Below are positions 5,068 through 47,446 of a stretch of DNA of 64,000 nt, piece by piece; within the stretch, counting starts at the first letter, position 1; each line of letters begins with the position of its first letter. Position numbers and translations under genes: made by a program. The DNA is taken from positions 2,240,001 through 2,304,000 of the forward strand of contig OZ241889.1 of NCBI GenBank assembly GCA_965203355.1, given 5' to 3'. The notes under the pieces are model-generated. The model was not told where the DNA came from. It saw only the letters and a program-made list of their open reading frames with translations, and searched no databases. Source of the stretch: Candidatus Latescibacterota bacterium. Its GTDB lineage: Bacteria; Latescibacterota; UBA2968; UBA8231.

Positions 5068-6762
5068 TCAATCGGCGTCCGTTTTCCTTCCCACTGTAAA
5101 GATCACTACGACAATCAGGCACAGCCCTATAGCTAGGCCCGTGGTCGGCGACCACAGCAGGGTACTGCCCAAGTAGCCGCACAGCCCAGCCACCGTCATC
5201 GTCGTCAGGGCGTAGGGTAGCTGGGTGCGCACGTGGGCTAAGTGGTCGCAGGCCGCGGCAATGCTGGAGAGGACCGTGGTATCGCTGATGGGGGAGCAAT
5301 GGTCGCCGAAGATCGCGCCGTCTAATACCGCGGCGGCCACGAGAACCGTCAGCGCCAGACCGCCCAAGTCGTAAGCTACCGGGATCAGGGTCGGCAGAAG
5401 GACGGCCATGGTCGTCCACGAGGTGCCGATGGAAAAGGCGACCACGGCGGCGAGCAGGAAGACGAGGAGGGGGAGGAAGCGCGGGTCTAGGAAGCCGGAG
5501 AGCGCCCCGACGATATAGGCCGAAGTCTCGACCGCCTCGCAGGTTTCCTTAATCGCCCAAGCCAAGATCAAGATCACCAGCGCATAGGAAAAGCCCGTAA
5601 TGCCGCGTGCATAGGTCTTGCAGACCGCCACGAGGCCGAGCGGGCGTATAGTGCTCGCCGCCTCGCGGCGGGTTAGGGCCAAGACAGCGGCCAGTACGGA
5701 GCCAGCTAAGGCGGCGAGGAACATCACTTTGGGGCCGTCGGCGTGGGAGAAAACTTGGATCCAGTAGAGCCGGGCGAAAAAACCGTGTTCGGCGCGGGTC
5801 GCCACCACGGCCGGTGCTTGGCTGGCGTCTAGGTGCATTCCGCCCAGTACGCCAGCGACGACGAGCAGGACGGGACCAGCGGCCACCCCCCAATGGGCGC
5901 GGAGGCCCGGGTGTTCGGGAAGTTGGGATGCGTCGCCGGTCATCGGGCGGTGTCCCGGCGCGAGGACTTGGCCCATTCGGCGCGCGCGTTGTTCGGCTTT
6001 GAGCATGGGGCCAAAATCGCGGCCAGCGACCGTGGAGCACAGCACAAAGGCGAGGGTCAGCAGGCAGTAGAAGCGGGCCGGTAGGGCGCGAAAGAACAGT
6101 TCGTAACCGGAAACCTCCGCGCCGACTTGCTCCATTGCGCTGTCGAATAGCCCTACCTCAAATCCGATCCAAGTGCTGACGACGGCTATGCCAGCCACCG
6201 GGGCCGCGGTGGAATCGACGAGAAAGGCCAACTTTTCGCGCGAGATGCGGAAGCGGTCGGCGATAGGGCGCATGGTGGTGCCGACGACGAGGGTGTTGGC
6301 GTAATCGTCGAAGAAGACCACCATCCCCAACAGCGCGGTGGCCAGCCGGGCCGAGCGCCCGCCAGCAGCCCGGGCGACTAACAAGTCGGCCAGGCCACGA
6401 GTGCCCCCGGCCAGCGAGATGACGCGCACCATGCCGATGAGCGAGGCGGTGAAGCCGAGAATGAAGAGTTGAAAGGAGTCGCGCAGTGGGGTCCAGACAA
6501 AGTCTAGGAGGGTGCGTTCTAAGCCGCGAAACGGGATGGCGTACAAAGGAACGTCGGCTGGCAGGGAAATGAGCGCACCGCCGACTATGGCCAACCCTAG
6601 TCCCAAGATCAGGCGGCCAGTAGCCACGGCCACGAGGATGGCCGCGGCGGGTGGAAAGAGACTTAGGCCACTCGTGGTGCCTTGATCGGGCAGGAGCAGT
6701 GCGCCAAGCAGGGCTGCGCCCAGCGCTAGCAGCAGGCGGAGAAAGGGAAAGGCCGAGCGCAC
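5068..6762 (-). CDS. Na+/H+ antiporter NhaC family transporter
   Basis: FFDDYAN, ISREKLAFLVDSTAAP, GTSW, GDHCSPISDTT motifs. Confidence 0.92.
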   Translation of the reverse strand: MRSAFPFLRLLLALGAALLGALLLPDQGTTSGLSLFPPAAAILVAVATGRLILGLGLAIVGGALISLPADVPLYAIPFRGLERTLLDFVWTPLRDSFQLFILGFTASLIGMVRVISLAGGTRGLADLLVARAAGGRSARLATALLGMVVFFDDYANTLVVGTTMRPIADRFRISREKLAFLVDSTAAPVAGIAVVSTWIGFEVGLFDSAMEQVGAEVSGYELFFRALPARFYCLLTLAFVLCSTVAGRDFGPMLKAEQRARRMGQVLAPGHRPMTGDASQLPEHPGLRAHWGVAAGPVLLVVAGVLGGMHLDASQAPAVVATRAEHGFFARLYWIQVFSHADGPKVMFLAALAGSVLAAVLALTRREAASTIRPLGLVAVCKTYARGITGFSYALVILILAWAIKETCEAVETSAYIVGALSGFLDPRFLPLLVFLLAAVVAFSIGTSWTTMAVLLPTLIPVAYDLGGLALTVLVAAAVLDGAIFGDHCSPISDTTVLSSIAAACDHLAHVRTQLPYALTTMTVAGLCGYLGSTLLWSPTTGLAIGLCLIVVVIFTVGRKTDAD

Positions 6763-6763
6763 C

Positions 6764-8635
6764 TCAGTCGTCTTGCGGCGATTCGACTTCGCTGGCGGGG
6801 ACGGTGGACATTTCGAGCTTAAAGGCCAACAAGTACATCATAAAACAGCCGATGATCCACCAGGCAATTTGCCAGACCCACAGCGTGGGGATCCCTAGGG
6901 GCCAATGGGTGGGATCGGTCTGATTGCCTAAGACGGCAAAGGGGCCGATGGCGCAGAGGAACCAAACTACCGTCAGAATCCAGATCGGCACTTTCCACTT
7001 CCTTTTGGCCTCGGGCAGGGCCGTGTGCTCTTTGAGGAAGTGGTGATAGCGATCGCGGTGGGCCAGATGGTTGGCTTCCTTGGGCTGGGTGAACAAACTG
7101 ACGACAACGACAAGGCCCATATTAAAGAGGATACCCCAACCGGCACTGTGCAGTGTGAGCGGATAGCGGCCAATGCCGATGAGGCCGCCTAGCTCGGTTA
7201 TATAGGTAAAGGTAACGGCGATGAGTCCGGCGATGAGTCCGGCGACAATGGCCTTGGGGGTGAAGAAGCGGATGTAGCAGATGCCTAAAAGCGCCGGCCA
7301 CATCTGGAATCCGTAGGAAACGGCCAAGCCCCCCAGCAAGACGAGCAGGTCGCCGGAAGCAAGCCCAACTAACAAGGCTAGGCTGACGACGACCGCCACC
7401 GTCAAACGACCGACAAAGACTTGGGCCGAATGCGATGCCTCTTTGTTGAAGAAATGGCGGTATAGATCGCGGGTGATAATGCCGCTGGCCGTGGACATGT
7501 AGGCGGCCCCGGTCGATTGCATGGCGGCCAGCGCACACACGGCCAAAAGCCCTAAGAGGAAGGGAGAGCGGGCGGTTAAGGTGTCGATCAGGTAGGGAAC
7601 CAAGTGGTCGGATGCGGGCGGGCCAAGCGGTTTAGTCCCCGGGATCAGTCCCATGTCGAGCAGCCGGCCGCCCAGCCCTTGAAAGGCCGTAAAAAAGAAC
7701 AAGATGCCGCCGATGATCAGCGAAGAGGCGAAAACCTGTTGATAGGGAAAAGGCCGAGGATCGCGGTTGGCAAAAGCCCACATTGAAAAGGCCGGAGCCG
7801 ACTGAATGCCCATCAAGGCAAACATATAGGTCAGGATCATCAGGCCGGTCCAAGGACCGCCTTGGGCGTCGAAAAACAGGGTGCCAACGCGCTCTAGCAA
7901 AGCGTCTGACTCCGGGCGGGTCGGAATGGCGACCATGTCGGGTTTTTGCTCGGCCAGACCGACCAGCCCCCCCTTGAAGGCCGCCCAGCCGCCGACCAAG
8001 TCGAGGGCAATAAAGCCGAGGATGACGATGCCGAGCGCCAAGAGGATGCACTGGACGCAGTCGACGTAGGCGACCGAACGCAAGCCGCCCGATGCTACGT
8101 AGATAAAGACGACGACCGAAAGCACAATGGCCCCCCCCTCGACCGAGCCGATGAAGCTGCCCGCTAGCGGCGTACCGGTCGTCAGGCGATTGAACAGTAA
8201 GCCCGATGCCTTGAGCTGGATGCCGAGATAGGGCACGCTGAAGACGAGCGCGACGATGACGGTGAGGAAGCGCATCGCATCCGTGCGGTAGTAGTCGCTG
8301 AACATCTCGCCCGGGGTGATATAGCCAAAGCGATGGCCCAAAAGCCACTGCCGCTTGAGGAACAACACCCCAGTGAAGGGGATCGTGATGGCGTAGAAGG
8401 AGGCAAAAGCATAGGGCAGGCCGACGTTGTAGATAGTGCCGGGATGCCCGACAAAGGTCCAGCCGCTAAAAGAGGTGGCGGTGGCGGCCAGCACGAAGAC
8501 CCACAGGCCGATGCCGCGGCCCGCGATGAAGTAATCCGAAGCCGTCTTGGCCCGGCGCGCCCCTTTGACGCCCCAGAAGATGCAGTACGACCAGTAGCCG
8601 ACGGTAAAGAGCAGGAGCCAGACCAGTTTTTCCAT
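6764..8635 (-). CDS. Sodium:solute symporter family protein
   Basis: DYFIAGR, ATSFSGWTF, GGLRSVAYVD, AAMQST motifs; many TM helices. Confidence 0.92.
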   Translation of the reverse strand: MEKLVWLLLFTVGYWSYCIFWGVKGARRAKTASDYFIAGRGIGLWVFVLAATATSFSGWTFVGHPGTIYNVGLPYAFASFYAITIPFTGVLFLKRQWLLGHRFGYITPGEMFSDYYRTDAMRFLTVIVALVFSVPYLGIQLKASGLLFNRLTTGTPLAGSFIGSVEGGAIVLSVVVFIYVASGGLRSVAYVDCVQCILLALGIVILGFIALDLVGGWAAFKGGLVGLAEQKPDMVAIPTRPESDALLERVGTLFFDAQGGPWTGLMILTYMFALMGIQSAPAFSMWAFANRDPRPFPYQQVFASSLIIGGILFFFTAFQGLGGRLLDMGLIPGTKPLGPPASDHLVPYLIDTLTARSPFLLGLLAVCALAAMQSTGAAYMSTASGIITRDLYRHFFNKEASHSAQVFVGRLTVAVVVSLALLVGLASGDLLVLLGGLAVSYGFQMWPALLGICYIRFFTPKAIVAGLIAGLIAVTFTYITELGGLIGIGRYPLTLHSAGWGILFNMGLVVVVSLFTQPKEANHLAHRDRYHHFLKEHTALPEAKRKWKVPIWILTVVWFLCAIGPFAVLGNQTDPTHWPLGIPTLWVWQIAWWIIGCFMMYLLAFKLEMSTVPASEVESPQDD

Positions 8636-22394: not shown

Positions 22395-22454
22395 ATAGCG
22401 GTGGTCAGTGGTCAGTGGTTAGTGTCTACGGGCCACAGGCCACAGGCCACTATC
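22395..22454. repeat. Heptamer inverted-repeat hairpin with no cargo
   Basis: GATAG CGGTGGT CAGTGGT CAGTGGT TAGTGT ... GGCCACA GGCCACA GGCCACT ATC. Confidence 0.75.
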
Positions 22455-37427: not shown

Positions 37428-40400
37428 TTGACGGATCTATTCTTTGAACAGCCGGTCTTAAACTCGCCTTACGAGCGTCCGAGCCGTCATTGGGAACTGG
37501 ACGAGACCGGGCAGCCGACCCAGCAGATCGTTGAACACCGCCGACCCGCCGAGTTCATCACGCCGATTCCGCAGCCGAAGAAGCGCCAAGGAGAAAAGCA
37601 GCAAGGGGCGCTAGTCTTTGACGAGGCCGCGCAAAAGCTCGAAACGGCCGATCAGCAATACGACCTGACGGCGGTCATCAACGGGGTTCGCGCGCAGGTT
37701 GACCGCTGGCGGGCGCTGCCAAACCCGCGCCAGTGGCAGGTGACCCCGGAGACCGCTCGCTTGCTCCAGCACTGGCGGCACCACCGCTTTAGTGGCATTC
37801 GGCCCTTCTTCTGCCAAGTCGAAGCGGCGGAGACCGCTATTTGGCTCACCGAGGTTGCGCCCAACACGCGATCGGGCCGGGCCTTTCTCGAGCATCTAAA
37901 GGACGCCAACCACAACGCCAACCCGGAACGGCCGCTGCCGCGGTTGGCCCTCAAGCTGGCGACCGGCACGGGCAAGACCACGGTCATGGCGATGTTGATT
38001 GCTTGGCAGACCGTCAATGCGGTGCGTCGGCCGCAAAGCCGCCGCTTCACGCGCGGTTTTTTGGTGGTCACGCCCGGCATCACCATCAAGGACCGCCTGC
38101 GCGTACTGCAGCCGAATGACCCGGATAGCTACTACCAGAGCCGCGAGTTGGTGCCCAGCGGCATGCTCCCGGAGCTGCAAAAGGCCAAGATCGTCATCGT
38201 CAACTATCACGCCTTCAAGCGGCGCGACCGCCTGGCGCTTTCCAAAGGCGGCCGTTTGTTGCTCGCGGGACGGGGCCAGACGCTGGCAACCTTGGAGACC
38301 GAGGGGCAAATGCTGCAACGGGTCATGCCCGAACTCATGGGCGCGAAGAACGTCTTGATCCTCAACGACGAGGCGCACCACTGCTACCGCGAAAAGCCGG
38401 GCGAGCCGGAAGAAGGGGCGCTCAAGGGCGATGACCGCAAGGAAGCCGAAAGGAATACGGCGGCGGCGCGGCTGTGGATGTCGGGGCTGGAAACCGTTGG
38501 CCGCAAGCTCGGCATCAACCGGGTGCTGGATCTTTCAGCGACGCCCTTTTTTTTGCGCGGGTCCGGGTATGCCGAAGGCGCGTTGTTCCCTTGGACGATG
38601 TGCGATTTCTCGCTCATGGACGCGATTGAATGCGGCATCGTCAAATTGCCCCGCGTGCCGGTGGCCGACAACATTCCCGGCGGCGACATGCCCAAGTTTC
38701 GCCGGCTCTGGGACCACATCCGCCCGGCCATGCCCAAGAAGGGGCGGGGCCAAGGCCAAGACCTCGATCCGCTCAGCCTGCCGGTGGAGTTGCAGACGGC
38801 GCTGGAAGCACTGTACGGACATTATCAGCAAACGTTTGAGTTGATGGAGCAGGCGGGCATGGACGTCCCGCCGTGTTTCATCGTGGTCTGCAATAACACC
38901 TCGACTTCCAAGCTGGTGTACGACTACATCGCTGGTTTCTGGCGCGAGAACGAGGATGGCTCGAAGAAGCTCGAGAACGGTCGCTTGGAACTGTTTCGCA
39001 ACTTTGACGAACAGGGCAACCAATACCCGCGCCCCCGCACACTGTTGATCGACAGCGAGCAATTAGAGTCCGGCGACGCGCTCGACAGCAATTTCCGCAA
39101 GATGGCCGCCGACGAGATCGATCGCTTTCGGCGCGAGATCATCGAGCGCACTGGGGACCGTCGTCAGGCCGACCACATCAGCGAGCAAGCGTTGCTCCGC
39201 GAGGTGATGAACACGGTGGGCAAACCGGGGCGGCTGGGGGATTCGATTCGCTGCGTGGTGTCGGTGTCGATGCTTACGGAAGGCTGGGATGCCAATACCG
39301 TTAGCCACGTGCTGGGCGTGCGCGCCTTTGGGACGCAACTGCTGTGCGAGCAGGTCGTTGGCCGCGCCCTGCGCCGTCAGTCCTACGATCTCAACGAAAA
39401 GGGCTTGTTTGACGTGGAATACGCGGATGTCTTGGGCATCCCGTTCGATTTTACGGCCAAGCCCGTTGTCGCTCCAGTCAAGCCACCGCGCAAGACCGTT
39501 CAGGTGCGGGCCGTGCAGCCTGAACGCGATGCGCTGGAGATATGTTTCCCCCGCGTGGCCGGGTATCGAGTGGAATTGCCGTCCGAGCGGCTCAGTGCCG
39601 AGTTCAACGAGGACTCGGTGCTGGAGCTGACGCCGCATCTGGTTGGCCCGTCCAGTACGAGGAATCAGGGGATTATCGGCGAGAGCGTGGACCTCAACTT
39701 GGTTCACACCAACAATCTGCGGCGCTCGACCGTACTCTTTCACCTGACCTCGCGGTTGCTCTATACTAAGTACCGCGATCCGGGCGACGCCCCCCAGCTC
39801 TATCTCTTCGGCCAGCTCAAGCGCATCGCCAAGCAGTGGCTCGATGGCTACCTCATCTGCAAGGGCGGCACCTATCCTGCCCAGCTTATGTATCAGGCGC
39901 TGGCGGATAGGGCCTGCGAGCGCATCTCGGCGGCCATCACGCGAAAGGGAATCGGCCAGCGCCCGGTCAAAGCCGTACTCGATCCGTACAATCCCGTTGG
40001 TTCGACAGCCGAGGTGAATTTCAACACGACCCAGACCAGCCTGTGGCAGACCGATGCCCGGCGTTGTCATCTCAACCACATCGTCCTCGACAGCGACTGG
40101 GAAGCCGAATTTTGCCGTGTCGCCGAATCCCATCCGCACGTCCAAGCCTACGTCAAGAACCACAACCTCGGTTTGGAGGTGCCCTACCGTTGCGGGTCGG
40201 AAACGCGGATGTACCGGCCGGATTTTATCGCAGCTATTGACGATGGTTGTGGCCGCGACGATTGGCTGCATCTGATCGTCGAGATCAAGGGCTATCGGGG
40301 GGAAGACGCCAAGGACAAGAAAACGACCATGGACACGTATTGGGTGCCTGGGGTGAATAATTACCGGGCCTACGGGCGCTGGGCTTTTGCCGAGTTGATT

Positions 40401-40499
40401 GACGTGTTTGAGATGGAAGCTGCGTTCAATCGGTTGGTTGAGCAGTTTAGGGCCGCGGCGATAGCTCGACAAAAGGGGCGCGCTAATGCTTTGGGATAG
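37428..40499 (+). CDS. res: Type III-like restriction endonuclease subunit (SF2 helicase + PD-(D/E)XK nuclease)
   Basis: LATGTGKT, DEAHH, LSATPF, MLTEGWD, EQVVGRALRR, YRPDFI...IVEIKG. Confidence 0.93.
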   Translation: MTDLFFEQPVLNSPYERPSRHWELDETGQPTQQIVEHRRPAEFITPIPQPKKRQGEKQQGALVFDEAAQKLETADQQYDLTAVINGVRAQVDRWRALPNPRQWQVTPETARLLQHWRHHRFSGIRPFFCQVEAAETAIWLTEVAPNTRSGRAFLEHLKDANHNANPERPLPRLALKLATGTGKTTVMAMLIAWQTVNAVRRPQSRRFTRGFLVVTPGITIKDRLRVLQPNDPDSYYQSRELVPSGMLPELQKAKIVIVNYHAFKRRDRLALSKGGRLLLAGRGQTLATLETEGQMLQRVMPELMGAKNVLILNDEAHHCYREKPGEPEEGALKGDDRKEAERNTAAARLWMSGLETVGRKLGINRVLDLSATPFFLRGSGYAEGALFPWTMCDFSLMDAIECGIVKLPRVPVADNIPGGDMPKFRRLWDHIRPAMPKKGRGQGQDLDPLSLPVELQTALEALYGHYQQTFELMEQAGMDVPPCFIVVCNNTSTSKLVYDYIAGFWRENEDGSKKLENGRLELFRNFDEQGNQYPRPRTLLIDSEQLESGDALDSNFRKMAADEIDRFRREIIERTGDRRQADHISEQALLREVMNTVGKPGRLGDSIRCVVSVSMLTEGWDANTVSHVLGVRAFGTQLLCEQVVGRALRRQSYDLNEKGLFDVEYADVLGIPFDFTAKPVVAPVKPPRKTVQVRAVQPERDALEICFPRVAGYRVELPSERLSAEFNEDSVLELTPHLVGPSSTRNQGIIGESVDLNLVHTNNLRRSTVLFHLTSRLLYTKYRDPGDAPQLYLFGQLKRIAKQWLDGYLICKGGTYPAQLMYQALADRACERISAAITRKGIGQRPVKAVLDPYNPVGSTAEVNFNTTQTSLWQTDARRCHLNHIVLDSDWEAEFCRVAESHPHVQAYVKNHNLGLEVPYRCGSETRMYRPDFIAAIDDGCGRDDWLHLIVEIKGYRGEDAKDKKTTMDTYWVPGVNNYRAYGRWAFAELIDVFEMEAAFNRLVEQFRAAAIARQKGRANALG

Positions 40500-42263
40500 C
40501 GCGCACTTGTTGCAGCGACTTGAACTCGGCGAAGATAGCCGCTTTGAGTTTAAGGAAGCGGTGTTCGTTGACAATCGGGTTCGCGCTCCGCGTCGGGACG
40601 CTCTCGCCGACGAGTTGGCCGCTTTGGGCAACACCGTCGGCGGCACCTTGATCTTCAGCGTGTCCGACGCGGGCGCGGTGCGGCCGATGAGCCGCGCTCA
40701 GATGGATGCGTTGGAAATGTTCGTCAGCGAGATTTGTGCGGACAGCATCCATCCCCGGTTGGCCTACGTCACGCAGCGACTGGTGTTGGACGGTTCGTTT
40801 GTGTTGATCGTCGAGGTCGAACAGAGTGCGCTGGTCCACAAGAGTCCCGGGGGGTACTTTTCCCGCCAGGGTAGCACCAAGCGCGTGCTGTCGTCGGAGG
40901 CCTTAAAGCGTCTGTTTCAGCAGCGGGGGCGTTCTGGCCTGCTCGGCCCGGATGAAGCGATTGTTGCCCGTACCGGACTCAAGACGCTCGACGCGACCTT
41001 AGTGGATCGCTTCCTGAGTTCGCGTGCCACCGAGCCGTTGAGGATTCAGCTCGAGAAGCTGGGGTTGGTGCGAGAGGATGACCGGGGCGTACTGGGTGCA
41101 ACAGTCGCCGGGGTGCTGCTTTGCACTGAACACCCGGAGGCGTACCTAAGCGGCGCGATGATCGAAGCGGTTTGCTATCGCGGCACGGTGCGCGGCCGGG
41201 CGAGTCAGCACGACGCTGCCTCTATTACCGGCCCGCTGGATCAGCAGATCCGCGCTGCGGTCAACTTCGTCAGACGCAATACGTGGGTAGCGGCGCGCAA
41301 GGATCCCGGGCGAGTAGAGATTCCGCAATTTAGTCCGCGCGCCCTGTTTGAGGCCATCGTCAACGCGGTGGTACACCGCGACTACTCAATGGAGAACGCC
41401 AAGATCCGGCTCTTTGTTTTTGATGATCGCCTTGAGTTGTACTCACCGGGGGCCTTGCCTAACACGCTGACCATTGAGGCCATGCGGAATCGACAAGCCA
41501 CCCGCAACGAAACGCTCGTGTCGGTCCTCCGTCGGCTCGCGGTAGGGGATATGGCCGGTACTGGCGACCGGCAGTACTTCTTGGAAGAACGCGGCGAAGG
41601 GGTTTCGATTATCTACGAGCAGACCCAAGGGCTGACCGGACGCGACCCAGCATACGAACTGTTCGACGGTGCGGAACTGCGGCTGACCATTCCTGCTGCC
41701 CCCCCGCCGGTTCATGGCATTGAGGGGGAGGTGTTGGTGTCGGCCGCTGGTCGGCCGCTCGCCGGGGCAAAGGTCGTTGCGCTGTACCCCAACAAGACTT
41801 GGATGGAGGAGGAAACCGATGCGTTTGGGCGGGTCCATTTCGGGTTTCACTCGGAACTCCCCATCACCGTTTTCTGCGCGGCACCGGGCCATGCCGCCCA
41901 CGTGGAGCGGGATTGGCTCCCGCCGAAACCCCTTGACGTGCCGCTCGCACGGTTGCCGCTGGGCGGCTCAACGGTATTCACGGACGGGAGCGGACACTTG
42001 CCCGATTTGACCGGGCGGCTGAATCCGATCCTCGACGATCGCGATCGCATGTACCTGTACGCGACAAATGTCGCCATTGATGAAGGCAAGCAGCAGCCGG
42101 TTCACTTCAAATTGAACCAGCCCTTGCGGCTTACGGATGTCAACGGGTTTGAGTGGATCGTGCGGTTCGTTGAGATGATCGGAACGTCGGTGCTGTTGGA
42201 ATACGAAGCCGCGTCCGACAAAGCTCCGCGATGAGGATGCGAATGCGTTCAATCGGTTGGTTG
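40421..42263 (+). repeat. 20-bp direct repeat (40421-40440 and 42244-42263) flanking the AlbA_2 gene
   Basis: TGCGTTCAATCGGTTGGTTG twice; the second copy continues as a Res-like tail (NAFNRLVGGFRAME*). Confidence 0.88.
40486..42234 (+). CDS. AlbA_2/Schlafen domain + HATPase_c_4 protein with C-terminal beta-rich domain
   Basis: GEDSRFEFKE, ALGNTVGGTLIF, EAIVNAVVHRDYS, FDDRLELYSPG, EERGEG. Confidence 0.85.
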   Translation: MLWDSAHLLQRLELGEDSRFEFKEAVFVDNRVRAPRRDALADELAALGNTVGGTLIFSVSDAGAVRPMSRAQMDALEMFVSEICADSIHPRLAYVTQRLVLDGSFVLIVEVEQSALVHKSPGGYFSRQGSTKRVLSSEALKRLFQQRGRSGLLGPDEAIVARTGLKTLDATLVDRFLSSRATEPLRIQLEKLGLVREDDRGVLGATVAGVLLCTEHPEAYLSGAMIEAVCYRGTVRGRASQHDAASITGPLDQQIRAAVNFVRRNTWVAARKDPGRVEIPQFSPRALFEAIVNAVVHRDYSMENAKIRLFVFDDRLELYSPGALPNTLTIEAMRNRQATRNETLVSVLRRLAVGDMAGTGDRQYFLEERGEGVSIIYEQTQGLTGRDPAYELFDGAELRLTIPAAPPPVHGIEGEVLVSAAGRPLAGAKVVALYPNKTWMEEETDAFGRVHFGFHSELPITVFCAAPGHAAHVERDWLPPKPLDVPLARLPLGGSTVFTDGSGHLPDLTGRLNPILDDRDRMYLYATNVAIDEGKQQPVHFKLNQPLRLTDVNGFEWIVRFVEMIGTSVLLEYEAASDKAPR

Positions 42264-42332
42264 GGGGATTTCGGGCAATGGAGTAGGGGAGTTGGAAAGC
42301 TATAATTGATTTAACTGACGAGGGAGGAAGCC

Positions 42333-42536
42333 ATGAAACTGAAAGTTGTGATTCACAAAGCGGAAGAAGGTGGATATTGGGCAGAAGTACCCGCTATCCC
42401 CGGCTGCGCCACACAAGGGGAATCCTTCGAAGATCTGCTGACCAACCTCTACGAGGCTGTCGAAGGTTGTCTGTCCGTCGAGGTGCGCGACATTCCTATA
42501 TCGGAGCAGGACAAGGTGATCGAAATCGCCGTATGA
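42333..42536 (+). CDS. hicB: HicB-family antitoxin (short, no DNA-binding domain)
   Basis: [27 protein letters not shown]. Confidence 0.92.
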
Positions 42537-42688
42537 AGGTCGTTAGCGGCAAGCAGTTTTGTAAGCTGATCGAGTCGCGGGGGTGGCAGTTGAAGCGCAT
42601 CAACGGAAGCCACTATTGCCGTGAAGGGCGGGTGTTGAGCATTGATCGGGTTCGTGCCGAAGTGCTGATTAACCAAGAGCAACTTTAG
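42533..42688 (+). pseudogene. hicA: HicA toxin, truncated after the GSH motif
   Basis: ATGA overlap with hicB; [27 protein letters not shown] followed by unrelated sequence, no VPxH motif. Confidence 0.75.
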
Positions 42689-42730: not shown

Positions 42731-45697
42731 ATGGCGAAACGAAAATCGACTAAAACCGTTGAAACGTTGCGGCATCAAGACGCATCGCGGAAGAACATTC
42801 CCACGGCTGAGTATCAGGCGGTGATGGCCGACGACGACCGGAATCCGATTCAGGTTGCGTATGAGCGGCGCAATCGGGATCTCGATCCGCAGCTTGTTTG
42901 GCGCGGCAAGGACGAGCAGGACGGGTCGGATTTGGTGGTGCAAGCGCCGCCGCTGTTCATTCAGGAGAAGGTGCATCCGAAAGTGTTGATCGATGATTTG
43001 CGGCAGCGGAGCGGCGCGTCGAGCGCACAGACGGATTTGTTCGCGGATTTTAATGGGCTGCCGAGCGCGGACGCTCAGACCGAGTTTTACCAGCACGACG
43101 CGAACTGGTCGAATCGGATGATTCTCGGCGACAGCTTGCAGGTGATGGCGTCACTGGCCGAGCGCGAGGGTCTGCGCGGTAAGGTGCAGTGCATCTACAT
43201 TGACCCGCCGTATGGGATCAAGTTCAACTCGAACTTTCAGTGGTCCACCACCAGCCGCGACGTGCGCGATGGCAAGGCCGAGCACATTACCCGCGAGCCA
43301 GAGCAGGTGAAGGCGTTTCGGGATACGTGGCGCGATGGGATTCATTCGTATTTGACGTATTTGCGGGATCGGCTGACGGTGGCGCGGGATTTGTTGGCGG
43401 AGAGTGGGTCGGTTTTTGTGCAAATTGGCGACGAGAATGTGCATCGGGTGCGGGCGGTGATGGATGAGGTTTTTGGGGAGGAGAATTTTGTCTCGATGAT
43501 TTACTTCGCCACGACTAGTGGATTTTCTACATCGGAAATCAGCCGCGTTGGTGATTACTTGATTTGGTACGCAAAAAGCAAAAGTGAAACCAAATACCGA
43601 GAATTGTATGTTCCAAAAGGTAGTATCGGGAGCGGTGTTGAATCTTACAGGTTTTTGGCACTCTCTGACGGAACTCAGCGATCTATGACAAGAGAAGAGC
43701 GTGAAGGCCATACTGCTTTGCCTGAAGGCAGCAAGATTTTTCGACGCAGCGACTTACAGAGTAAAGGGACTGCATCTCAGGATACTCCTGTTCAGTATGA
43801 AGGTCGCATTTTCCGTCCTTTATCAAATAGTCACTGGAAAGCAAACTGGCCAGACGGAATGGAAAAACTCAAACTTTCTGGTCGCGTTACTATTGTCGGA
43901 AATCGACTTTGCTACATTCGTTACTCCAACGATTATCCAGTGCAGCAGCTTACCAACTCTTGGATGGATACAGGATTTGGTTATGCTGCAACGGATAAAC
44001 AATATGTTGTCCAAACGCACGAGAAAGTCATCCAACGCTGCATCCTAATGACCACCGACCCCGGCGACCTCGTCCTCGACCCCACCTGCGGCTCCGGCAC
44101 GACAGCCTATGTCGCCGAGCAGTGGGGCCGCCGCTGGATCACCATTGACACTTCCCGCGTGGCCCTCGCGCTGGCCCGCGCCCGCATCATGGGCGCCCGC
44201 TACCCTTGGTACATCCTCGCCGACAGCCGCGAAGGGCAGCGCAAAGAAGCCGCACTCGCCCGCCAAGTCCCCTCGGAAGCACCCACATACCACGACATTC
44301 GCCAAGGCTTCGTGTACGAGCGCGTCCCCCACATCACGCTCAAATCCATCGCCAACAACGCCGAAATCGACGTAATCTATGAAAAATTCCAAGCAACGCT
44401 GGAGCCGCTGCGGACGGAATTGAACGCCGCGCTCGGCACGTCCTACGAAGAATGGGAAATCCCCCGCGAGGCCAGCGACGCTTGGCCCGCAGCGGTCGGC
44501 AAAATGCACGCGGACTGGTGGGAACAGCGCATCGCCCGGCAAAAGGAAATCGACGCCTCCATCGCCGCCCAAGCCGACTGCGAATACCTCTACGACAAAC
44601 CCTACGAAGACAACAAAAAAGTCCGCGTGGCCGGCCCGTTTACGGTGGAAAGCCTGTCGCCGCACCGCTTCTTGGGCGTTGATGAAAACGACGAACTCAT
44701 CGACCATGTCGCCGAAAGCAAGTTGGGGTACGACGAAAAGCAGGACTTCGCTGCCATGATCCTCGACCACCTCAAAACCGCCGGCGTCCAACAGGCGCAC
44801 AAAGAAGACCGCATCGCCTTCGCCGGGATCAGACCTTGGCCCGGAGCGCGCGTCTGCGCCGAGGGAACCTACGTTGAAGGCAACGCCGACTCGGGTGCTG
44901 AAAAACGCGCTGGCATCTTCATCGGCCCGGAGTTCGGCACGGTCTCGCGCCCAGACCTCGTAGAAGCGGTGCGCGAGGCTGCCGACGCCGACTTTGATGT
45001 GCTGGTCGCCTGCGCCTTCAACTTTGACGCCCACGCCTCGGAGTTCAATCGGCTGGGCCGCGTTCCAGTTCTCAAGGCCCGCATGAACGCGGATCTCCAC
45101 ATGGCCGACGACCTCAAAAACACCGGCCAAGGCAACCTTTTTGTCATCTTCGGCGAACCGGATATTACAGTGGTCAGTGGTCCGTGGCTAGTGACCAGTG
45201 GGGGAGAAAAATGGGCAAACTATGAACAGGTTAAAGAGCTATCAGGACTTGGAAGTTTGGCAGAAATCAATCGAGCGGGCAAAGATGGTCTATCCACTCT
45301 CGCGCCGAAACTCGCTGCGATCCAGAAGCTGACGCCCGCGGATTTCCCCCTAACACTGACCACGGACGACTGGTCACAGGTCACTGTCCACGGCGTAGAC
45401 GTGTTCCATCCCAACACCGGTGAAATCCGCAGCAGCAGCACCGATGGCATTGCCTGCTGGTTTGTCGATACCGACTACAACGAAGAAAGTTTCTTCGTCC
45501 GCCACGCATACTTTCTCGGAGCCAGCGATCCGTACAAAGCACTGCGGACGACGCTCAAAGCCGAGATCAATCAAGGCGCTTGGGAAACCCTCCACAGCGA
45601 CACCTCCCGTCCTTTTGCCCCGCCCACGTCCGGCCGCATCGCCGTGAAGGTGATCAATCACTTGGGGGACGAGGTGATGAAGGTGTTTCGGGTGTGA
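42731..45697 (+). CDS. mod: Type III-like adenine DNA methyltransferase (Mod, beta class)
   Basis: YIDPPYG (motif IV), low-GC TRD region ~43490-44040, VLDPTCGSGTT (motif I), IAVKVIN..GDE C-terminus. Confidence 0.94.
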   Translation: MAKRKSTKTVETLRHQDASRKNIPTAEYQAVMADDDRNPIQVAYERRNRDLDPQLVWRGKDEQDGSDLVVQAPPLFIQEKVHPKVLIDDLRQRSGASSAQTDLFADFNGLPSADAQTEFYQHDANWSNRMILGDSLQVMASLAEREGLRGKVQCIYIDPPYGIKFNSNFQWSTTSRDVRDGKAEHITREPEQVKAFRDTWRDGIHSYLTYLRDRLTVARDLLAESGSVFVQIGDENVHRVRAVMDEVFGEENFVSMIYFATTSGFSTSEISRVGDYLIWYAKSKSETKYRELYVPKGSIGSGVESYRFLALSDGTQRSMTREEREGHTALPEGSKIFRRSDLQSKGTASQDTPVQYEGRIFRPLSNSHWKANWPDGMEKLKLSGRVTIVGNRLCYIRYSNDYPVQQLTNSWMDTGFGYAATDKQYVVQTHEKVIQRCILMTTDPGDLVLDPTCGSGTTAYVAEQWGRRWITIDTSRVALALARARIMGARYPWYILADSREGQRKEAALARQVPSEAPTYHDIRQGFVYERVPHITLKSIANNAEIDVIYEKFQATLEPLRTELNAALGTSYEEWEIPREASDAWPAAVGKMHADWWEQRIARQKEIDASIAAQADCEYLYDKPYEDNKKVRVAGPFTVESLSPHRFLGVDENDELIDHVAESKLGYDEKQDFAAMILDHLKTAGVQQAHKEDRIAFAGIRPWPGARVCAEGTYVEGNADSGAEKRAGIFIGPEFGTVSRPDLVEAVREAADADFDVLVACAFNFDAHASEFNRLGRVPVLKARMNADLHMADDLKNTGQGNLFVIFGEPDITVVSGPWLVTSGGEKWANYEQVKELSGLGSLAEINRAGKDGLSTLAPKLAAIQKLTPADFPLTLTTDDWSQVTVHGVDVFHPNTGEIRSSSTDGIACWFVDTDYNEESFFVRHAYFLGASDPYKALRTTLKAEINQGAWETLHSDTSRPFAPPTSGRIAVKVINHLGDEVMKVFRV
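45167..45387 (+). mobile_element. Heptamer-IR-flanked cassette read in frame within mod
   Basis: Left arm CAGTGGT CAGTGGT CCGTGGC TAGTGAC CAGTGGG (45168-45202); right arm AACACTG ACCACGG ACGACTG GTCACAG GTCACTG (45352-45386), the reverse-complement type. Confidence 0.75.
45222..45332 (+). pseudogene. Internally deleted four-helix-bundle (23S rRNA IVS/Avd-like) gene in the +1 frame of mod
   Basis: Translates MNRLKSYQDLEVWQKSIERAKMVYPLSRRNSLRSRS*; SYxDLxVWQKS is the hallmark N-terminus of this family; GGGGAG upstream. Confidence 0.8.
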
Positions 45698-45733: not shown

Positions 45734-47446
45734 GTGAGTTTCAACACGGCTAATAGCACATTTCGCCAGTTGATGGCCAATGGGACGAGCTATCGCGTAC
45801 CATTGTTCCAACGCGACTACTCTTGGGGGGCTGACGAGTGGGATGACCTGTGGCAGGATCTTGTTGCGCTGTTCGGCGAGGATCCGGAACCGGCTCACTA
45901 CATGGGCTATCTCGTGCTGCAATCAGACGATAACAGATCGTTCGACATCATCGATGGACAGCAGCGCATGACCACGCTGAGTTTGTTGATGCTGGCGGCG
46001 GTGGCGCATCTGATGGACTTGGCCGTGCCGAATGATCCGAATGACCCGCAACATCGGCGCGCTGAGCAGTTGCGGAGCAATTACATCGGCTATTTGGATC
46101 CAGTCAGCCTAGTGCCGCGCTCCAAGCTGACGCTCAATCGGCACAATGATCGATTGTACCAGCATTACTTGGTTCCCTTGGAGCATTTGCCGCAAAAAGG
46201 ATTGAACGCATCGGAACGTCTTTTGGGCCGGGCGTTTGTTTGGTTTAAGGAGTGCATTGAGCAACGCTGCGGTGATGATGGGGAGTCGGTGGCGCGCTTT
46301 GTCGATGGCGTGGTGGATAAGCTCTTTTTCACCATCATTACCGTGACCGACGAATTGAATGCGTTCAAGGTGTTTGAGACGCTCAATGCGCGCGGTGTGC
46401 GTTTGTCTGCTACTGATTTGCTGAAAAATTACTTGTTCTCGGTTGTCTCGCGTGGTAATGCGCACGAATCCGAGATCAACGCCTTGGAAGAGCGTTGGGA
46501 AAATATCGTCGGGCTGTTGGGCAGCGAGAGCTTCCCCGAGTTTTTGCGCGTCTTCTGGAACAGCCGCAACAAACTGGTGCGCAAGGCGGATTTGTTCAAA
46601 ACCATGCGCAGTGCCATCAGCGATAGAGCGGGTGTGTTTCGGTTGGTCCGCCATATGGACCGACACGCACGGATATATGTGGCCCTGCGCGACCCGGAAG
46701 ACGATTCTTGGACCGCAGCCGAGCGCGAAAGCCTGGCCCAGTTGCGGATTTTCAACGTGCGTCAGCCATTGGCGTTATTGCTGGCGGCATTTGAACAATT
46801 TGCGGAACGCGACCGCGCTGACTTTGAACGTTTTTTGCAGGCTATCGCGGTAGTATCGTTTCGCTACAACGTGATTTGTGGTCGCCAAAGCAACGAGCTG
46901 GAAGTCGTGTATAACCAGATCGCCCGCGCGTTATCGGCCGGTGAAATTGACAGCGCACAAGAAGCCGTTGCAAGGCTGCGGCCGGTCTATCCCGGAGACG
47001 CGGAATTTAGGGCGGCGTTTGCAGATAAGGCACTGCAAACAACGAGTGCCCGCAACAAGAAAGTCGTGTGCTTTATACTATTCCGGCTCGAAGCAAAGCT
47101 ATCGGGACAGCGCTTTGAAGAAGCGAGCGCGAAATACAACATTGAGCACGTGTTGCCGGAGAATCCGCACGATGCTTGGCACGAGTTTGACGACCAGCAG
47201 CGCGAGGCATCTACCTACCTGCTAGGTAACATGACCCTTTTGACGACTGCGGACAATCGCGCGTTGGGCAATGCGAGATACGACGAAAAGCAATCGGTTT
47301 ATCAGCAGAGCGACTTTGCTATCACCCGTGCGCTGGCAGAACATTACGACACTTGGACTATGGAGAAGATTCGCAGCCGTCAAGCTTGGATGGCAAGACA
47401 GGCTACCGACATTTGGCGGATTGGTTTCCACTCGCCAACGCTTTGA
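45734..47446 (+). CDS. GmrSD-type (DUF262 + DUF1524/HNH) modification-dependent restriction protein
   Basis: VPLFQRDYSW, IIDGQQRMTT, FETLNARG, IEHVLPE, LGNMTLL...N. Confidence 0.93.
   Translation: MSFNTANSTFRQLMANGTSYRVPLFQRDYSWGADEWDDLWQDLVALFGEDPEPAHYMGYLVLQSDDNRSFDIIDGQQRMTTLSLLMLAAVAHLMDLAVPNDPNDPQHRRAEQLRSNYIGYLDPVSLVPRSKLTLNRHNDRLYQHYLVPLEHLPQKGLNASERLLGRAFVWFKECIEQRCGDDGESVARFVDGVVDKLFFTIITVTDELNAFKVFETLNARGVRLSATDLLKNYLFSVVSRGNAHESEINALEERWENIVGLLGSESFPEFLRVFWNSRNKLVRKADLFKTMRSAISDRAGVFRLVRHMDRHARIYVALRDPEDDSWTAAERESLAQLRIFNVRQPLALLLAAFEQFAERDRADFERFLQAIAVVSFRYNVICGRQSNELEVVYNQIARALSAGEIDSAQEAVARLRPVYPGDAEFRAAFADKALQTTSARNKKVVCFILFRLEAKLSGQRFEEASAKYNIEHVLPENPHDAWHEFDDQQREASTYLLGNMTLLTTADNRALGNARYDEKQSVYQQSDFAITRALAEHYDTWTMEKIRSRQAWMARQATDIWRIGFHSPTL

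Follow-up and report, generated by a model that had tools for sequence, protein, structure and literature searches.

A probable decayed intervening-sequence-type cassette, bounded by inverted heptamer arrays, nested in frame within a type III-like DNA methyltransferase gene

Introduction

The closest described systems to the element considered here are the intervening sequences (IVSs) that occur in 23S rRNA of Coxiella burnetii, Leptospira and Xanthomonas. The 428-nt IVS in helix 45 of Coxiella has a 28-bp terminal stem, is excised by RNase III in vitro, and contains a decaying S23p open reading frame (ORF) preceded by tandem GACAGAT heptamers whose number varies between strains; the sections of that source drawn on here treat the origin and mobility of rRNA IVSs, as well as the function of the S23p protein, as open since the 1990s (PMC4990558). 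We have analysed a 64,000-nt stretch of the genome of a Candidatus Latescibacterota bacterium (contig OZ241889.1, positions 2,240,001 to 2,304,000; hereafter the window), in which a 222-nt segment of the forward strand, at 45167..45388, lies inside Mod, the gene for a type III-like DNA methyltransferase. We argue that this segment is probably a decayed cassette of the IVS type: inverted arrays of imperfect heptamers around the remnant of an S23p (PF05635/TIGR02436) gene, read through by the host frame.

Full-length copies of the cassette, which we find at the same site in related Mod genes, amount to a net gain of ~440 nt, to be set beside the 428 nt of Coxiella. Like the 23S IVSs they have a stem of ~30 bp formed from terminal inverted repeats, an internal ORF of the same family and upstream tandem heptamers that vary in number; they replace a hairpin tip rather than interrupt it, and their ORF tends to decay (PMC4990558). 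They are unlike the IVSs in that they occupy a protein gene and not helix 25 or 45 of 23S rRNA, in that the host frame is open through the cassette – making the cargo a nested, overlapping gene – and in that heptamers build both arms.

Rickettsia palindromic elements (RPEs; Ogata et al. 2000, summarised in PMC10969869) are ~150 bp long and lie in frame within protein genes. With these, and with intragenic MITEs (miniature transposable elements with inverted repeats), the Mod cassette has in common that it is a small palindrome, in frame in a protein gene, apparently translated and tolerated at a permissive site, but RPEs have no independent gene, whereas the full Mod cassette has an intact, selected gene of ~120 codons (PMC10969869). 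The ends of the Mod cassette, moreover, are heptamer arrays whose sequence changes from copy to copy. The cassette also has the terminal inverted repeats, the small size and the lack of a transposase of its own that mark the MITE/RPE type; as to copy number, the 64-kb window holds two heptamer hairpins and no second copy of the cargo.

Classical phase-variable mod genes carry perfect tetra- or pentanucleotide tracts near their 5′ end. The Mod gene described here likewise has, within a type III mod, a repeat whose unit is not a multiple of three; its heptameric repeats, in contrast, are imperfect and make up the arms of an inserted element close to the 3′ end. Small dispersed repeats have reportedly been noticed by Elhai within heptamer arrays of cyanobacteria. 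The heptanucleotide repeats of Geobacter metallireducens occur as four or five tandem heptamers, taken to be putative regulatory sites, and resemble the present arrays in lying both within and between genes, with some paired sites drawn as loops; unlike them, they are connected, in the text consulted, neither with four-helix-bundle genes nor with translation in frame (PMC2700814).

Free-standing S23p genes are known too, 18 of them in cas loci (PMC3936711). Those found in defence and plasmid loci belong to the same protein family and are, as reported below, mostly flanked by inverted short arrays; they differ in standing between genes and not within one, and the consulted part of PMC3936711 makes no mention of flanking arrays. 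The literature that we searched, with subscription papers and supplements outside its scope and some sources available in part, yielded no description of an S23p/four-helix-bundle cassette inside a protein gene, nor any of the arrays that flank free-standing S23p genes.

Results

Most related Mod genes lack the insert

Mod (42731..45697, forward strand) is an ORF of 988 aa in which the insert is read through as residues 813-886, between GEPDI and HGVDVF. A first-pass annotation, made from the sequence alone, had estimated ~74 aa at this place and put homologs at about 15 aa. The insert measures exactly 74 aa (nt 45167-45388), and related Mod genes have 14 aa in 52 of 73 loci, so that both figures are borne out. 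These loci come from a search of DNA from one genome per species with an alignment of 30 Mod proteins, which returned 80 loci; the site is readable in 75 of them (73 with both flanks, together with locus L073 and the broken L075), five being without the C-terminal part. Because 69 of the 75 readable sites are empty and 6 are filled, the segment is to be understood as an insertion that has replaced a hairpin tip. Among the 73 loci with both flanks, 67 have 39-57 nt at the site (42 nt in 52 loci, 57 nt in 9, 54 nt in 4, 48 nt in 1 and 39 nt in 1) and 6 have 219-487 nt; L073 and L075 are both of the empty type. It is the 42-nt hairpin-tip segment of the typical empty allele, DILDAEDGQIQVKV (14 aa), whose place the insert takes, with boundaries set by tblastn of the flanks and by alignment with full-length copies.

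The contrary view is that the segment is a native, lineage-specific domain of Mod, whose +1 ORF and pairing ends arose by chance. In its favour, every one of the best 120 protein matches to Mod residues 680-988 carries 73-187 aa here (160 aa in 84 of them) with conserved ends, although this list is biased because the query included the insert, was also selected by length, and was examined at the DNA level for only a few of its members. The predominance of empty loci refutes the idea of a native domain, as do the match of the +1 frame to a known family at E ~1e-40 and its codon-position signal (see below), and the scatter of the filled state over the Mod tree speaks against it further; we judge it very improbable. 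The first-pass annotation had named three observations that would count against an insertion, and in each respect the opposite was found: the segment is no conserved domain of Mod, the +1 frame has family matches, and the flanks pair.

The same hairpin tip also accommodates unrelated inserts, one of 73 aa and helical (L097, Gemmobacter fulvus p6) and one of 33 aa (L098, a Pseudomonas amygdali plasmid), both of them without heptamers and without a +1 ORF. The tip is generally permissive.

The cargo is a four-helix-bundle gene in the +1 frame

It had been proposed that the +1 frame of the insert belongs to the four-helix-bundle family, and that Mod alleles with a full-length ORF of this kind be sought at the site. 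Four such alleles exist. L063, L052, L008 and L049, with inserts of 438-480 nt, have an uninterrupted +1 ORF of 119-132 codons that matches PF05635 over positions 1-103 to 1-106 of 106 (E 2.1e-38, 1.5e-37, 4.3e-39 and 7.2e-41, respectively; 128-139 bits vs a cut-off of 33.8) and TIGR02436 with 122-138 bits vs 24 (E 1e-36 to 1e-41); NF008911 agrees with the assignment, and the cargo of L063 matches the solved Xanthomonas protein XCC0516 (PDB 2gsc) at E 5.5e-25. Pfam recognised no family in the Mod-frame translation, be it the 74 aa of the window or the 160 aa of L063 and L052. Across the five full-length copies, pairwise differences accumulate at third positions of the +1 frame (0.546, vs 0.318 and 0.239 elsewhere) and amino acid identity is 52-83% in the +1 frame vs 21-54% in the Mod frame, a pattern of substitution that marks the +1 frame as the one selected in full-length cargos.

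In the window the corresponding ORF spans 45198..45332, its ATG standing at 45222 downstream of GGGGAG, where the first-pass annotation had placed it; what is left of the gene (45222..45332, forward strand, +1 frame, 36 codons and a stop) encodes MNRLKSYQDLEVWQKSIERAKMVYPLSRRNSLRSRS. DNA alignment with L063, L052 and L003 shows that ~27 N-terminal codons and the C-terminal RSLRSRS (about 7 codons) have been retained and that the middle is deleted, in line with the earlier suggestion of a cargo collapsed to its two termini while Mod stayed open. The L063 cargo finds this remnant by tblastn at 45216-45293 (69% over 26 aa, E 5e-6). Common site, common frame and this sequence match together indicate that the window ORF descends from a PF05635/TIGR02436 member.

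The closest relative of the window Mod is that of L004 (82% identity over the tree alignment). Its insert of 219 nt keeps SARFPAEE and has a deletion junction different from that of the window's 222 nt, both deletions being in frame; because the junctions differ, at least two independent in-frame deletions have destroyed the cargo and left Mod open. The window copy is a dead, shortened cassette.

A four-helix-bundle gene could also be the Avd of a diversity-generating retroelement (DGR) with Mod as its target. The full-length cargos do weakly resemble bAvd, with E 4e-5 to 1.4e-3 for PF22296 and 6.5e-6 to 2.4e-4 for NF033474, but at 19-26 bits they are far short of the cut-offs of 40 and 80 (NF033474 21-26 vs 80); the interval from 37.4 to 52 kb, with genes for the restriction subunit Res, an AlbA_2 protein, HicB, Mod, GmrSD, DnaK and UvrB, includes none for a reverse transcriptase, and no template/variable repeat pair was seen. 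On the sub-cut-off profile scores and the lack of a reverse transcriptase at 37.4-52 kb we rejected membership of a DGR, an origin that strikes us as scarcely credible.

Inverted heptamer arrays close the insert

The left arm (45167..45206, forward strand) consists of five imperfect CAGTGGT-type heptamers followed by GGGGGAG (ACAGTGG TCAGTGG TCCGTGG CTAGTGA CCAGTGG GGGAG) and reads TVVSGPWLVTSGG in the Mod frame; the right arm (45342..45388, forward strand) runs from CCCCC through reverse-complement heptamers to CACTGTC and reads FPLTLTTDDWSQVTV. That these arrays can pair, as the first-pass annotation supposed, is borne out by the arm-against-arm duplex (-50.1 kcal/mol, z -4.6, none of 500 shuffles as stable) and by 31 terminal-stem bp in the minimum free energy structure. 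RNA folding of 45155-45400 likewise closes the insert in a long imperfect stem (dG -88, z -3.09, none of 200 shuffles as stable), and in 6 of the 7 copies the arm duplex has a z of -3.1 to -6.6. GTG repeated with period 7 over four units is, within the window, unique to the insert (2 overlapping matches, 0.00 expected). The motif CAGTGGTCAGTGGT has 11 matches in the window at up to 3 mismatches, vs 3.24 expected, a number reached in none of 100 shuffles. The whole window scanned against Rfam gave nothing at the gathering score and no rRNA, and at E <=1 the region 45000-45600 and L063 gave only chance-level matches.

A second heptamer hairpin, intergenic and without cargo, lies at 22399..22450 on the forward strand. 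It has 3+3 heptamers, possesses the exact 14-mer CAGTGGTCAGTGGT in common with the Mod left arm, and folds with dG -36.2 (z -3.6, a stability reached in none of 200 shuffles); it is not crossed by any ORF of >=80 aa.

A putative mini-ORF of five codons, ATG..TGA, is found on the forward strand at 45211..45225, starting 4 nt past GGGGGAG. Its stop codon and the start codon of the remnant share the sequence ATGA, perhaps a vestige of termination-reinitiation coupling.

The host frame stays open through the cassette

The Mod frame crosses the insert with 0 stops in 6 of 7 copies, vs 2-14 in the third frame and 1-10 in the reverse frames. L003, the seventh copy, is longer by a single CAGTGGC heptamer, past which its Mod frame has 0 stops; its cargo contains a TAG nonsense codon. 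Each copy has 24-31 positions at which the cargo puts the Mod frame at risk, and none of these follows a T-ending codon, though 13-18 codons per copy end in T. Together with a shuffle test that is weighed in the Discussion, this constitutes moderate evidence of selection, or survivorship, for an open host frame, and favours translation over removal at the RNA level.

An alternative account gives the stem itself the leading role: RNase III would cut it in the Mod transcript, splitting or destabilising Mod mRNA and perhaps releasing a cargo mRNA, with read-through being marginal. A stem of ~31 bp is indeed predicted, RNase III cleaves the Coxiella IVS, with its 28-bp stem, in vitro (PMC4990558), and in our reading of the duplex outputs a GGGAG-type stretch before the cargo start pairs with a CCC-rich stretch past its stop in the window, L004, L052 and L063. 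But a Mod frame that was no longer needed should gather stops, and 6 of 7 copies have none while the seventh is off by a single heptamer; the frame was kept, moreover, by two independent deletions, and translating ribosomes would be expected to unwind the stem. We consider this account unlikely.

The heptamers might equally be kept as a phase-variation switch, 7-nt slippage either turning Mod off or joining residues 1-812 of Mod to the four-helix-bundle protein. A unit of seven does not preserve a triplet frame, and in L003 the one extra unit has shifted the Mod frame; three database proteins (P0121, P0129 and P0130) pass from Mod into the cargo frame and two (P0122 and P0124) from the cargo into the Mod C-terminus; and the heptamer number of the Coxiella IVS differs between strains (PMC4990558). 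The five frame-switching proteins represent frameshifted alleles or sequencing errors. Set against a switch are the imperfection of the arrays, which lowers slippage, the provenance of the variants, which come from different organisms and assemblies and not from one population (some being possibly sequencing or assembly errors), and the nonsense codon in the L003 cargo, which fits plain decay. We regard a maintained switch as doubtful.

Predicted structures bear on how the translated insert might be accommodated. In an AlphaFold2 model of the C-terminal part of L063 (72 sequences, mean predicted local distance difference test score, pLDDT, 69) the arms form strands at 123-134 and 276-292 with pLDDT ~80-88, and residues 183-247 fall below 50. 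The window's short form is modelled with a mean pLDDT of 79, its insert reaching 75-91 as two strands and three helices. Since no more than 7 sequences inform the alignment over the insert, these models support a tolerated extension of the host hairpin without amounting to proof of a fold.

The confidence predicted for the 74-aa insert of the window would nevertheless suit a folded module no less than a passive loop, and to that extent counts against a mere passenger; the short form may have been co-opted as a small module of Mod. Shortened alleles of 73-128 aa retain the same N-terminal stretch, and the window deletion took roughly the portion predicted to be disordered in the long form. Co-option sits poorly, however, with a Mod-frame peptide that has no Pfam match, with an N-terminal part that is still patterned for the +1 frame in full-length copies (dual-coding test: +1 third positions 0.456 vs 0.319 and 0.252), with alignment columns of 7 sequences, and with the absence of the segment from most relatives; we regard it as quite unlikely.

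The insert has been gained and lost repeatedly and has a second host

We placed the filled state on a tree of 93 Mod proteins from which the insert had been removed (63 empty and 30 filled rows; of the 97 database proteins of >=940 aa, every fourth was kept). It requires 14 changes, at least 8 of which are forced by well-supported branches, showing repeated gain and loss of the insert.

The Mod-frame peptide of L063 was searched against 1.84 billion representative proteins and matched 46 at E <=0.001, 44 of them new; 43 of these 44 match the reference Mod P0009, and most of the matches reach into the Mod flanks. P0167 matches Mod over the insert region only and is an MmeI-like enzyme (PADLOC: DrmMI, type IIG) whose relatives carry PF07669, PF20466 and PF20473. 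Its element lies between HYTPEELVKPLIKHSLDYII and LLSITVCD, where 19 compared relatives have a linker of ~25-60 aa. In-frame elements were seen in two host families only, Mod (6 loci and the window) and the MmeI-like P0167. This second host, and the cargo-less hairpins described next, uphold the earlier proposal that the element enters protein genes without breaking their frame.

Three further sites in Mod, in L008, L031 and L063, have in-frame heptamer hairpins that lack cargo, and the protein-level signature of these hairpins recurs in P0121 and P0147. Apart from L031, the window and the six filled loci, the 860 kb of DNA analysed contain no arrays of this kind. Long perfect heptamer tracts outside Mod were seen at L003 9795-9854 and L008 218-284, being (CACTAAC)x8 and alternating GTGGAGA/GTGATGA; both genomes have a filled Mod.

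P0172, a type IIG fragment, is a candidate further host with a match of only E 3.6e-4. Two others were dismissed: P0139 joins a Res N-terminus to a Mod C-terminus, and P0174 is an unrelated repetitive protein. The MmeI-like proteins P0175-P0294 range from ~1000 to 1600 aa, some having DUF433 (PF04255) or a GreA/GreB C-terminal domain (PF01272) inside the enzyme, and the linker after HYTP shows odd short segments such as FSPSQGEMSRSDRGV; these segments and domains may be further in-frame insertions.

Free-standing relatives on plasmids are mostly flanked by arrays

A tblastn search of 72,556 plasmids with the L063 cargo gave 22 records, mostly cyanobacterial, and 16 of these loci (L081-L096) were examined. 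Their genes are annotated as 'four helix bundle protein' or 'S23 ribosomal protein' and lie between cas6 and cas4 (two records), cas10 and cmr3, or the two subunits of ribonucleotide reductase, or else follow integrases or belong to conjugation clusters. When the 90 nt upstream were paired with the 90 nt downstream, 11 of 16 gave a duplex z of -3 or lower (40 shuffles each), a count that overstates independence because several loci are homologous plasmids, and that includes L085, where the arrays are direct and not inverted. By eye, tandem arrays of ~7 nt are present on at least one side in 14 of 16 loci, for example (GTAGGGA)8 with (TCCCTAC)4 and (AACAGGG)4 with (CTGTTCC)7. As a rule it is the purine-rich array that lies upstream, and the unit sequence varies by locus.

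The host gene and its neighbourhood

Mod matches PF01555 (E 8e-32, Pfam) and PADLOC MTase_III PDLC03632 (1384 bits over three stretches, the best of which ends at residue 815). Its relatives of solved structure, as judged by sequence, are the Mod subunits in 6k0w (E 8e-19) and, for EcoP15I, in 4zcf (E 1e-15). In the model of its C-terminal domain (window 44792-45694) the insert sits in a hairpin after the invariant EPD; Foldseek matched this model to no PDB entry at E <=0.001, so that the C-terminal domain of the Mod family has no solved relative by this search. A likeness of this domain to PD-(D/E)xK nucleases (BamHI, MspJI, AspBHI; E 0.067-0.13) was weak and local, and was dropped because the candidate lysine varies among empty alleles.

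The cognate restriction subunit, a BPTD_3080 family restriction endonuclease of 1023 aa, is encoded by an intact ORF at 37428..40499 on the forward strand (NF046055 1334.8 bits vs a cut-off of 800; ResIII domain present), and the same pairing of Res and Mod is annotated on plasmids of cultured relatives. In this region (37428-42688) two genes, a Schlafen/AlbA_2 plus HATPase_c_4 gene (40486-42234) and one that is HicB-like (42333-42536), separate Res from Mod, where cultured relatives have a single small gene. Directly 3′ of Mod lies a GmrSD-type (DUF262/DUF1524) nuclease gene at 45734-47446, with a PADLOC HEC-06 match at E 6e-225.

Insertions of other kinds were met with in the relatives. Near residue 590 of the empty-allele reference L036 there are in-frame, GC-rich, low-complexity segments (L064 5782-6116, L041 5803-5927), and L075 has an insertion of ~1.2 kb (6310-7540) with a change of frame, by which its Mod gene is broken.

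Discussion

We put at roughly 0.8 the probability that the insert in Mod is a decayed IVS-type cassette, consisting of inverted imperfect heptamer arrays around an S23p gene and read through by its host. An IVS-type cassette in a protein gene, with a nested overlapping gene inside it, would be new as far as the literature searched shows. On this reading ribosomes would pass straight through the cassette, both arms being translated as a strand pair that prolongs the host hairpin and the off-frame cargo being carried as a largely disordered loop. The intact restriction partner is a reason to keep Mod whole, and since Mod serves that partner only copies that leave Mod open would persist. The cargo, by contrast, is probably dispensable to the host, hence the in-frame deletions suffered by the window copy and, independently, by L004, which the arms and the Mod frame survived. 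Because one heptamer more or fewer puts Mod out of frame, the arrays may in addition be able to switch Mod off.

Several findings weigh against this interpretation, and they fall into three groups. The first concerns the cargo of the window. Taken alone, its +1 peptide scores below every family threshold, with E 0.0078 and 16.7 bits vs a cut-off of 137 for NF008911 (profile positions 1-25) and E 0.056 and 14.1 bits vs 33.8 for PF05635 (positions 1-21). The first-pass annotation had looked to the family profile for confirmation in the window itself; on cut-offs that hope was disappointed, and it was the match to the L063 cargo that established descent. With such scores, and 36 aa vs ~105-125 aa for the full length, the window copy is a remnant and no family member, and its identity rests on the full-length copies. 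Nor did tblastn of four cargo proteins against the 80 loci and the window find any cargo-bearing copy away from the Mod site.

The second group concerns reading through. Synonymous shuffling of the cargo codons left the Mod frame open in 782, 955, 353 and 326 of 5000 trials, a product of 1.4e-4 that overstates independence because the four copies are related; for any single copy the chance of an open Mod frame under this null is 7-19%. Sense and antisense arm duplexes are equally stable, with no consistent difference, and for this reason an RNA hairpin and a DNA hairpin are indistinguishable here.

The third group concerns mobility. No target-site duplication is evident on comparison of filled with empty sites, ~30-42 nt being replaced, though the likeness of the host QVKV codons to the last heptamers leaves the right boundary indistinct; no transposase or recombinase for the cassette was found. 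The proposal of a mobile cassette is therefore upheld as far as repeated gain and loss on the tree is concerned, whereas mobility itself follows from distribution only and has no mechanism attached. Trees of the flanks (14 changes for the near flank vs 18 for the far one) and identities in 30-aa windows (filled-filled pairs being about as similar as filled-empty pairs) gave no signal of co-transfer, and accordingly demonstrate no route of spread. A common site need not mean targeting, since the Mod tip also holds unrelated inserts. The cassette may have spread by insertion at hairpin-forming or permissive sites, by allele exchange via the highly conserved flanks, or by both.

It is tempting to draw these observations together with the rRNA IVSs. 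S23p genes with inverted heptamer arrays might constitute one class of small mobile cassette, widespread and settling at the tips of hairpins: as IVSs in 23S rRNA, as stray 'S23 ribosomal protein' genes between the genes of defence and plasmid operons, and as translated, frame-preserving nested genes in proteins. The S23p protein, a relative of the nucleic-acid-binding retroelement protein Avd, would serve the cassette as a factor of its own for mobility or maintenance, and the cargo-less hairpins would be non-autonomous derivatives or landing pads. We offer this joint reading tentatively, and at less than even odds.

If our interpretation is right, the cassette known from rRNA has in Mod a host of a second kind, a protein gene, whose sequences record its presence and absence, the preservation of frame, a series of stages of decay and repeated acquisition. 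The locus is also a clear example, from bacteria, of an entire gene under selection that lies out of frame within another gene which stays open, a situation in which gene callers report just one of the two. It suggests, too, that methyltransferases of restriction-modification systems may be altered or switched by insertions; and the arrays common to the plasmid copies make the idea of one element class testable.

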